A DNA stretch of 64,000 bases from positions 105,545 through 169,544 of the forward strand of contig CALVIX010000001.1 in the NCBI GenBank assembly GCA_944331895.1. The letters run 5' to 3'. Of the stretch, positions 33,052-33,764 are shown in pieces. The translations under genes were made by a program, and so were the position numbers. The stretch is from an uncultured Bacilli bacterium. GTDB lineage: Bacteria; Bacillota_I; Bacilli_A; RF39; UBA660. Under the pieces are notes generated by a model. That model worked only from the letters and a program-made list of their open reading frames with translations. It did no database searches and had not been told where the DNA came from. Within the stretch, counting starts at the first letter, position 1. The number at the start of each line of letters is the position of its first letter.

Positions 33052-33696
33052 TTACCCTTCAGCAGAAAATGCTTGTGATACTTTTCCTTCTGTATCAGAA
33101 TAACTTTCAACTGTATTGTTGATTGCTGTTCTTGATTGACTTGAAATTTCTTGTGTAGCATTATCGATCTTTGTTTTAATCACTCCAAGTGAATTGATCA
33201 AATTACTTGCTTGATTTCCACCAATAAATCCACAATTTTGAACAGCTTGTTGTGCACTCGTTAAGGCAGATTTTGCAGAATCTGCGATAGAAGTTAATTG
33301 ATTTGCAACTGTCGTTGCAGATGATAAATCAATTCCTCTTACTCCCCCAATGTTTTCACGAATTACACTTGTGTCCATCGTTTTTGTAATTGCAGAGAAT
33401 GATTGTGGTGAATAAGATGAGTCAGTTTGCATTGCCCATGCTTGTCCAGCACTATTCATAGAAGCAACCACACTTTCGAAAATTGAATTTGAACTTGTAA
33501 TTAAACTGTCAATTGCTGGTTTAAATGAGTTATTAAAGAATGTTTGAGCTTGATTACATGCCCATTTATCTGCCATCCCATTTACGAAACGATTTTGCAT
33601 ATCATCTCCTAATGCATGAATTAAATTTTCGTATGCTGCTTTGACAGAATTGATAGATGAATTTACTACATCAGGATTAAATCCAGTTAAAGCCAT
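33052..33696 (-). CDS. S/T/N/Q/A-rich helical protein, candidate secreted T7SS substrate (WXG100-like, double length)
   Basis: A perfect RBS AAGGAGG and its own TTGACA-17-TAATAT promoter serve it. It has no signal peptide. The segment DKWACNQAQTFFNNSF aligns with the EsxA WxG region (NWEGQAFSRFEEQF), and a second block SAGQAWAMQ is present. Confidence 0.4.
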   Translation of the reverse strand: MALTGFNPDVVNSSINSVKAAYENLIHALGDDMQNRFVNGMADKWACNQAQTFFNNSFKPAIDSLITSSNSIFESVVASMNSAGQAWAMQTDSSYSPQSFSAITKTMDTSVIRENIGGVRGIDLSSATTVANQLTSIADSAKSALTSAQQAVQNCGFIGGNQASNLINSLGVIKTKIDNATQEISSQSRTAINNTVESYSDTEGKVSQAFSAEG

Positions 33697-33735
33697 AATA
33701 TTCCTCCTTCTTTCGATAGCTTCCTATCTAATTTA

Positions 33736-33764
33736 ATATTATTATAAGTGTATCTAATTGTCAA
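33736..33764 (-). promoter_or_regulatory. Consensus sigma-A promoter internal to the operon, driving the 214-aa gene
   Basis: On the minus strand: TTGACA (33759..33764), 17-bp spacer, TAATAT (33736..33741). It lies about 35 nt upstream of the AAGGAGG RBS. Confidence 0.5.

Follow-up and report, generated by a model that had tools for sequence, protein, structure and literature searches.

The window analysed here is a 64,000-nucleotide stretch of DNA from an uncultured Bacilli bacterium (GenBank assembly GCA_944331895.1, contig CALVIX010000001.1, positions 105,545 to 169,544 of the forward strand). Close to a gene for an EssC-type ATPase belonging to a type VII secretion system (T7SS) it carries a gene for a 214-amino-acid (aa) protein, referred to as X214. 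With somewhat better than even confidence, X214 is read as a divergent member of the WXG100/ESAT-6 superfamily that combines two EsxA-like hairpins in one chain and, as core substrate, takes the place of EsxA in a reduced T7SSb-like system. The X214 family is unannotated; for a WXG100-superfamily protein its architecture is new and its W-x-C turn motif a modified one. A literature search found no paper describing the lineage. All type VII systems share a single substrate, EsxA, whose role continues to be debated.

X214 and its elements (window positions; X214 residues in brackets) are:
33052 to 33696, minus strand: X214, 214-aa gene for a predicted single-chain double-hairpin protein, likely of the WXG100 superfamily (W-x-C type), from the open reading frame (ORF), the AlphaFold2 (AF2) model and homologues
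33427 to 33675, minus strand: hairpin 1 (residues 8-90), ESAT-6-like by profile match and hhalign
33556 to 33564, minus strand: turn motif W45-A46-C47 (TGG GCA TGT), putative counterpart of W-x-G by conservation and AF2
33328 to 33357, minus strand: conserved linker motif E114-N-I-G-G-V-R-G-I-D123 between the hairpins
33058 to 33327, minus strand: hairpin 2 (residues 124-213), WXG100/EspC-like by hhalign and weak profile matches
33214 to 33237, minus strand: second turn N154-C-G-F-I-G-G-N161, in the gap between helices 124-153 and 162-213
33067 to 33102, minus strand: C-terminal pattern Y199-xxx-E203-xx-V206-xxx-F210, candidate export motif by match to the WXG100 pattern

Predicted fold, motifs and distribution of X214

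An earlier note, made from the letters of the window, had described a 214-aa ORF with a W-A-C segment and an AGQAWAMQ block (residues 83-90), preceded by TTGACA-17-TAATAT and AAGGAGG. All of these strings and signals are present as described. The protein is rich in small and polar residues (S 32, A 25, N 20, T 16 and Q 14 of 214; 15% Ser, 12% Ala, 9% Asn), and no transmembrane (TM) segment or signal-peptide-like N-terminus was found, the maximum 19-residue Kyte-Doolittle hydropathy being 0.85; both points agree with the earlier description.

An AF2 model was built from 42 homologues. It is all-helical (predicted local distance difference test, pLDDT, 86.1; predicted template modelling score, pTM, 0.81) and contains two helix-turn-helix hairpins, the kind of bundle that the earlier note had anticipated. 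Hairpin 1 consists of a helix at residues 8-41, turn 1 at 42-47 (D-K-W-A-C) and a helix at 48-90. It is followed by a linker at 91-123, modelled at high pLDDT, and by hairpin 2 with a helix at 124-153, turn 2 at 154-161 (N-C-G-F-I-G-G-N) and a helix at 162-213. DSSP assigned extended or bridge residues both to the W-x-C turn (44-45) and to the linker (116, 119 and 121-122).

Residues 43-58, which include the first turn, read DKWACNQAQTFFNNSF. W45-A46-C47 is invariant among the 42 close homologues. In a set of 115 diverse representatives W45 is kept in 114, and position 47 is occupied by C (68), S (30), A (6), D (4), T (3) or G (2); judged from these alignments, the turn motif of the family is W-x-[C/S]. 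Within the linker G118, G121 and D123 are invariant in the close-homologue alignment, and G121 is retained in 110 of the 115 diverse relatives. The second turn is without Trp and is conserved at G156 (104/115), F157 (108/115) and G159 (89/115). AGQAWAMQ, which had been proposed as a second WXG-like turn, proved to be the C-terminal end of helix 2 (residues 48-90), the second turn being NCGFIGGN. The block does follow the first Trp, at a shorter distance than the roughly 50 residues given earlier: W87 lies 42 residues after W45. A disulfide between Cys47 and Cys155 was considered and is not supported: the two cysteines co-occur with an odds ratio of 2.0 (p 0.11 without phylogenetic correction) and the turns are predicted at opposite ends of the bundle.

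Near its C-terminus X214 reads Y199-S-D-T-E203-G-K-V206-S-Q-A-F210. This fits HxxxD/ExxhxxxH, a C-terminal pattern described for all WXG100 proteins (PMC3935865), and hhalign places it on the C-terminus of EsxA. Among the 115 relatives Y199 is kept in 94, I or V at position 206 in 87 and F210 in 98.

Homologues were found only under unnamed entries. A word-indexed search gave 167, all from gut metagenomes and nearly all of 212-217 aa (about 213). An exhaustive profile search gave 439 X214-family clusters (50% identity, E <= 1e-3), with most relatives of ~211-220 aa. Genome matches were metagenome-assembled genomes (MAGs) labelled uncultured Bacilli, 'Tenericutes', Acholeplasmataceae, Clostridium sp. 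CAG:417, Ca. Faecimonas and Ca. Onthousia; one of them is a closed 1.26-Mb chromosome (OZ006994.1). The identical X214 protein occurs on 21 metagenome contigs. Neither Pfam nor NCBIfam sees this family, so current gut-microbiome T7SS censuses probably miss it, with its 439 clusters of unnamed proteins from uncultured gut and rumen Bacilli.

A minority of relatives carry C-terminal extensions of 50-210 residues past the 214-aa domain. Extended paralogues (L036:11108-12181 minus; P0185, P0192, P0220) share a module of the form IDFSxIxxNAxDAxNGxF..DYW..GKL..IRxDGxVLIxxDGVPMGYT, and the tail of P0220 is Gly-zipper-like: GHGIGNVVGWLFG. Such tailed paralogues are possibly toxins exported via their X214 domain; given the tails, the domain could serve as an N-terminal export module.

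Relation of X214 to WXG100 proteins

For comparison with proteins of solved structure, half-length X214 profiles were searched against 177,635 PDB sequences. The N-half profile matched M. tuberculosis ESAT-6 (3fav_B, 1wa8_B) over residues 8-93 with E-values of 0.0015-0.0017, and ESAT-6 was its best natural protein. In this alignment W45 falls on W43, the Trp of WXG, and C47 on G45, the Gly of WXG. The proposal of W-x-C in place of W-x-G is upheld by this register and by the position of the motif in the first turn of the AF2 model.

For profile-profile alignment with hhalign, a WXG100 reference was assembled from relatives of S. aureus EsxA and six sequences entered by hand; the latter were added because a sequence search with S. 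aureus EsxA gave staphylococcal sequences only. Against this reference the N-half reached 47-70% probability with scores of 26-30 (column-shuffled 9.8 +/- 1.6, reversed 14.7), and the C-half 62% with a score of 28.0 (column-shuffled 8.9 +/- 1.5, reversed 13.5). A ubiquitin-like (YukD) control gave 0.1%. In Pfam scans of the 115 relatives WXG100 matched more sequences than any other family (7/115 at E < 0.01, best 1.5e-5). The distant relative P0270 has a W-I-G turn and matches Pfam WXG100 at 5.9e-4 (20.5 bits, cutoff 27.3). T7SS_ESX_EspC of Pfam matched 12 of the 42 closer relatives (best 1.7e-4).

The WXG100 family is typified by EsxA-type helical hairpins of ~100 residues (PMC3935865). X214 departs from a strict definition (PF06013) in its length of 214 aa, in the Gly of W-x-G and in scoring below the Pfam gathering threshold; it agrees with it in the predicted helix-turn-helix hairpins, the C-terminal pattern and the linkage to an EssC-type ATPase. 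What holds of the earlier WXG100-type label is therefore remote profile similarity, not strict membership, and X214 is likely a member of the superfamily as judged by profiles and motifs.

Several observations weigh against this assignment or against the role derived from it. Scans of X214 gave no family above cutoff in Pfam or NCBIfam; the best matches below cutoff were EspC in Pfam (E 0.73) and ESAT6_2 in NCBIfam (E 0.0069, 16.6 bits against a cutoff of 100), the latter spanning residues 122-208, and the Pfam scan of the window protein had no WXG100 match at E < 1. Phmmer and the full-length X214 profile returned only noise from PDB sequences (DnaK, GTP cyclohydrolase, lysozyme repeats), and the C-half profile found no WXG100 protein there. 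The hhalign probabilities of 47-70% are moderate and not conclusive, and of the six sequences entered by hand S. aureus EsxA was verified, as were residues 7-89 of ESAT-6, which leaves four unverified. The acidic position of the C-terminal pattern is poorly kept (at 203, E in 27/115 and A in 44/115). ApoLp-III matched 23 and Flagellin_C 20 of the 42 closer relatives, for which reason part of the X214 profile signal is taken to be compositional.

These last matches, although weak, lend themselves to a different explanation, namely that Ala/Ser/Gln-rich amphipathic helices produce a false likeness to WXG100 and that X214 is an unrelated bundle of apolipophorin-, flagellin- or IpaD-like type. Matches of the C-half profile to designed bundles and IpaD (E ~0.002-0.04, PDB sequences) point the same way. 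So does Foldseek, which had been suggested earlier as a check: searched against PDB, the AF2 model of X214 gave generic helical bundles alone, as did that of its neighbour h184 (designed, Dps/ferritin, BAR; all E > 0.1). However, the full-length alignments are in register with W on W, the reversed and shuffled controls score far lower, the distant relative keeps W-I-G, synteny with a bona fide EssC is strict and h184 independently matches WXG100 and YwqH-like families. A chance likeness is accordingly considered very improbable.

The two halves of X214 were also aligned to each other. Hhalign gave 0.6% when close homologues were used and 41% when diverse ones were, and this weak similarity rules out a recent tandem duplication. 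The tandem WXG-like pair suggested earlier is retained in the sense of two hairpins whose halves are both WXG100-like by profile; the halves are too dissimilar for a recent duplicate. From these alignments X214 looks like a fused heterodimer-like pair and not a tandem repeat.

The essC locus and the proposed role of X214

The secretion genes next to X214 are:
34044 to 38702, minus strand: EssC, T7SSb-type FtsK/SpoIIIE ATPase (TIGR03928, FtsK_SpoIIIE)
33782 to 34063, minus strand: small ubiquitin-like (UBL) protein, EsaB/YukD-like by position, 93 codons, overlapping the essC stop, with weak UBL matches
32469 to 33023, minus strand: h184, second long WXG100-like protein of 184 aa with an invariant W40-x-D42 (synteny, alignment, AF2)
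32174 to 32476, minus strand: h100, small helical protein, weakly WXG100-like, kept in 36 loci
31926 to 32177, minus strand: h83, small helical protein, last of a four-gene module, kept in 33 loci

EssC matches the NCBIfam equivalog TIGR03928 with 948.5 bits (cutoff 778.4), and an N-terminal FHA match stays below cutoff (18.7 vs 20.7 bits). The ORF has 1552 codons; a probable start at M28 gives 1525 aa (1523-1525 aa by gene callers). In the family of the 93-aa protein a weak UBL_UBAC1 match was found in 20 of 28 relatives and the YukD profile in 1 of 28 (E 0.01). The label 'esaB' for this ORF is reasonable, though not proven, by position, size and UBL character.

For synteny analysis, all ORFs within +/-10 kb were clustered in 43 MAG loci. 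The module X214-h184-h100-h83 is kept in 33-38 of the 43 with X214 first, and it adjoins essC and the yukD-like gene in ~30, in line with the linkage to essC noted earlier; the yukD-like gene itself adjoins EssC in 30 loci. Identity to locus L001 is 96% for X214, 83% for EssC, 81% for the YukD-like protein, 64-71% for h184, h100 and h83 and 57% for a nearby CHAP protein. In distant loci X214 retains 60-70%, EssC 55-59% and the small proteins ~25-30%. Of all proteins of the locus X214 is the best conserved, which fits a core substrate and not a polymorphic toxin.

No Pfam or NCBIfam match to EsaA, EssA or EssB was obtained among the window genes scanned, and neither these genes nor any conserved membrane-protein family was found within +/-10 kb in the 43 loci. 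A canonical ~100-aa WXG100 gene near a T7SSb-type essC was likewise not detected in window positions 25000-64000 or in the 43 related loci. Genes 3' of the module that were considered as machinery in some loci are RNase III-like, RNase J-like (metallo-beta-lactamase) and ArsC/Spx-like by motifs seen by eye, and were set aside as housekeeping neighbours. In 8 loci a gene of the F11 family for a soluble, protein-kinase-like protein of ~245 aa (HGDLKPTN and DFA motifs; L012:9159-9908 plus) stands directly 5' of X214. It is not part of the window's locus and recalls the kinase or pseudokinase parts (EssB, TscD) of other T7SS subtypes.

With no EsaA-, EssA- or EssB-like genes conserved around the module, some function must be taken over, and X214 might do so as a non-secreted cytoplasmic or membrane-peripheral machinery part, either substituting for EssB, EsaA or EssA or regulating EssC as a chaperone; its WXG100 features would then reflect ancestry. 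A conservation above that of EssC and the conserved linker motif ENIxGxRGxD, which has no EsxA counterpart, would suit such a part. On the other hand, X214 has no TM segment, its Trp turn and the Y/V/F pattern at its C-terminus are retained as expected of an export signal, and paralogues carry passenger-like C-terminal tails. This explanation is regarded as improbable.

h184 lies directly 3' of X214 in 38 of the 43 loci. WXG100 is the top Pfam family among its relatives (8/35, best 9.3e-5), and YwqH-like matches 3 of 35. Its AF2 model, from a shallow alignment of 14 sequences, is an elongated rod with helices at 2-39, 43-117 and 124-183 (38, 75 and 60 residues) and a W-N-D turn after the first. 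h100 and WXG100 aligned end to end across 90 columns, with a probability of 7-14% (score 19.7, shuffled 7.6 +/- 1.4), and no family was assigned to h83 by Pfam or NCBIfam scans or by hhalign. h184 is probably a partner of X214. Since it is WXG100-like too, the true counterpart of EsxA could be h184, or h184 could be a partner that X214 cannot do without; this is a further point that counts against the assignment of the EsxA role to X214 itself.

The rod shape of h184, which would need partners, and the YwqH-like matches of some of its relatives bear on another proposal. B. subtilis YwqH, the type member of the YwqH-like family, is encoded beside the LXG toxin YwqJ. X214 might be a toxin-less LXG-like stalk or adaptor, forming a long helical rod with h184, h100 and h83 that recruits effectors of the CHAP and p481 types to EssC and is maybe co-secreted with them. 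Its ~214 aa equal the size of an LXG domain, and the helical partner genes are always 3' of it. The likeness to LXG (PF04740) and Lap proteins extends to a ~200-aa helical N-terminal export module with a modified W/LxG turn, to adjacent genes for small helical partners and to relatives with C-terminal extensions as in LXG toxins, one with a Gly-zipper-like tail reminiscent of TelE. The putative effectors are without a helical N-terminal domain of their own, and their common short motif could dock on such a complex. In contrast, LXG is absent from the X214 matches at E < 1 and from the 25 families most matched by its relatives. X214 ends at residue 214 with no toxin domain, its partner genes are downstream and not upstream, and each locus usually has a single, extremely conserved copy, while LXG/Lap sets tend to vary and to be specific to their effectors. 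EsxA of S. intermedius does not bind LXG complexes (PMC13355648), so an EsxA-like role needs no effector binding. The stalk is held to be unlikely, though it is the main rival of the preferred reading.

Under the preferred reading, X214 as an EsxA-equivalent, a structured 33-residue linker would join two different EsxA-like hairpins into one chain. Its four helices would probably pack within the one molecule into a bundle that corresponds to a dimer of EsxA with EsxA or with EsxB. The W-x-C turn and Y199..F210 would lie at the same end of this bundle; that they were placed from helix lengths alone (34, 43, 30 and 52 residues) tells against the argument built on them. If so placed, X214 could present one composite signal on a single chain. 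In EsxA dimers the export signal is bipartite: one protomer contributes its WxG turn, the other a PhixxxD close to its C-terminus. This signal is required for export of EsxA and of all LXG toxins, and LXG-Lap, PE-PPE and EspB share it (PMC13355648). The turn and C-terminal motif of X214 would correspond to a single copy of the bipartite 'WxG + PhixxxD/E' signal read by EssC-type ATPases. The reduced T7SSb-like system of these small-genome gut Bacilli would consist of EssC, the ubiquitin-like protein, X214, the 184-aa W-x-D protein and the two small helical proteins, with X214 as its EsxA-equivalent core substrate. X214 would have a promoter of its own and, in the leader, a palindromic control element, and the variable effectors encoded in the vicinity would depend on its export for their secretion. 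We infer secretion of X214, its dependence on EssC and its expression level.

Compared with EsxA/ESAT-6 (PF06013, especially the homodimeric T7SSb EsxA), X214 is alike in the Trp-turn hairpin, the C-terminal Hxxx[D/E]xxhxxxH, the place beside EssC, its rank as most conserved gene and the profile-level similarity of both halves. It differs in having 214 aa and not ~100, two non-identical hairpins with a conserved structured linker, Cys or Ser for Gly, a second turn GFxGG without Trp and scores below the Pfam and NCBIfam cutoffs. One composite signal is possible in X214, whereas the EsxA dimer has two that are pseudosymmetric.

EspB is a single polypeptide with two fused hairpins in a four-helix bundle and with WxG and YxxxD/E motifs. 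X214 is predicted to follow the same one-bundle logic as EspB and PE-PPE of mycobacterial T7SSa, with the W-x-C turn and the C-terminal motif on one chain. Unlike these it has no PE, PPE or EspB profile match, comes from a different phylum and accompanies a T7SSb-type EssC, and the window protein is without a disordered or processing region at its C-terminus. The YxxxD/E motif of EspB has been described (PMC3935865).

Subtypes T7SSa-j were defined from RefSeq with a core of an EssC-type ATPase, ubiquitin-like TsxB and WXG100-family TsxA, and some of them, such as T7SSg, are very simple (Garrett, Higginson & Palmer 2024, PMC11217815). The X214 locus resembles T7SSb-j in its EssC-type ATPase, ubiquitin-like protein and WXG100-type protein. 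It differs in coming from a MAG-only lineage whose 214-aa W-x-C and 184-aa W-x-D proteins are not described in that RefSeq survey (PMC11217815), and, although EssC here is of T7SSb type, the T7SSb membrane partners were not found nearby. The locus suggests that a T7SSb-type EssC can work without canonical EsaA, EssA and EssB, which bears on the minimal secretion machine. If the reading is true, X214 is a natural single-chain version of EsxA and a tool for asking how many signals EssC needs and which face of the bundle is read; its interest lies in two non-equivalent hairpins, one possible composite signal and Cys or Ser at an 'invariant' Gly.

Leader, putative effectors and further genes

The leader of X214 contains:
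33736 to 33764, minus strand: promoter-like element TTGACA-17-TAATAT, 10/12 consensus match
33715 to 33728, minus strand: palindrome GATAG-N4-CTATC between the -10 and the ribosome-binding site (RBS), candidate operator or 5'-terminal stem-loop, from an alignment of 24 leaders
33703 to 33709, minus strand: Shine-Dalgarno sequence AAGGAGG, 6 nt 5' of the X214 ATG, read from the sequence itself

X214 starts with ATG, 85 nt after the upstream 93-aa ORF. The -35 TTGACA is at 33764-33759 and the -10 TAATAT at 33741-33736, with a spacer of 17 nt. This element had been called a textbook promoter. Its 10/12 match is at chance level in this AT-rich region, with 79 such matches found and 74.5 +/- 10 in shuffles; what stands is the conservation of a promoter-like element in related loci. 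In the 43 loci X214 always follows an intergenic gap of ~75-300 nt, irrespective of a variable upstream neighbour (yukD-like, effector, immunity, kinase-like or divergent genes), and in most of them a -35/-10 pair lies ~40-60 nt 5' of the ATG, several scoring 11-12/12. In the leader alignment TAATAT of the window stands opposite TATAAT of other loci. A dedicated regulated promoter for X214 is well supported by these comparisons, its credibility resting on conservation across loci and not on the match score. The fraction of C-ending codons, used as a proxy for expression, is 0.27 in X214, 0.21 in EssC and 0.29 in Gap, and is inconclusive about high expression.

The palindrome has the general form (T)AGATAG-N4-8-CTATC(A), directly 3' of the -10 and 5' of the RBS, and was found at the X214 leader in ~25 of 43 loci (e.g. 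L012:9962-9976). In the 24 aligned leaders AT of GATAG and TATC of CTATC are invariant, and one clade has the symmetric GATAA/TTATC. Rfam scans of the leader, palindrome included, gave no known RNA family. An operator over the transcription start is favoured over a short 5'-terminal stem-loop because the bases are near-invariant and the stem is weak (5 bp). The window has 2 matches to the palindrome with 0.34 expected, and 5 of 100 shuffles reach 2. The second copy, GATAG-N6-CTATC at 45187-45202, lies inside the DUF4176 gene 45106-45432 and may be a chance match.

Downstream of the module are:
30666 to 31913, minus strand: 415-aa protein with a C-terminal CHAP peptidoglycan-hydrolase domain, candidate effector (Pfam CHAP, E 6e-16)
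29901 to 30455, minus strand: DUF4176 protein (Pfam PF13780, E 6.9e-15)

The CHAP protein gene is confined to the closest loci. Across loci, variable cassettes stand between the yukD-like gene and X214 or 3' of the module. In them large polymorphic proteins (325-1784 aa) are accompanied by putative immunity genes of small size and by DUF4176 genes; the latter adjoin putative effector cassettes in 12 loci. The putative effectors (30666-31913 and 46105-47550, both minus; in loci L007-L035 p481, CHAP415 and some F7) are without an LXG-like helical N-terminus. By eye they share an N-terminal signature, M-x(1-5)-K-I-K/D in the first ~12 residues and V-E-x-[VIL]-[DS] ~35-60 residues in; the CHAP protein carries M-x-x-K-I-K ... 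V-E-E-V in common with the others. To judge from these sequences, the short signature could mark a T7SS targeting region of a new kind.

Taken further, the locus could represent an additional, undescribed T7SS subtype with EssC, a ubiquitin-like protein and four WXG100-derived proteins and without EsaA, EssA and EssB. In it X214 would replace the EsxA dimer as a single-chain pseudo-dimer that offers one signal and is paired with h184, effectors would be targeted by the short non-helical signature M-x-x-K-I-K ... V-E-x-V-D and not by LXG-type domains, and the palindromic operator would gate expression. This extended scheme is put forward tentatively and is, as a whole, doubtful.

A second effector-type cassette (45106-47550, minus strand) lies ~6 kb from essC and encodes a 481-aa protein of the p481 family, a 236-aa protein and a 108-aa DUF4176 protein. 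Between this cassette and essC stand spo0A, tpi, a glycosyltransferase gene, a membrane-protein gene, pgk and gap. Elsewhere a p481-type cassette sits between the yukD-like gene and X214. Spo0A (38709-39479, minus strand) and an alpha/beta-type small acid-soluble protein (51859-52140, minus strand) are both encoded in the window, and closely related genomes labelled 'Tenericutes/Acholeplasmataceae' in public records appear to be small-genome Bacilli derived from spore formers. A T-box leader (Rfam RF00230, 96.5 bits) was found at 11483-11665 on the minus strand, 5' of a 436-aa ORF at 10134-11444.

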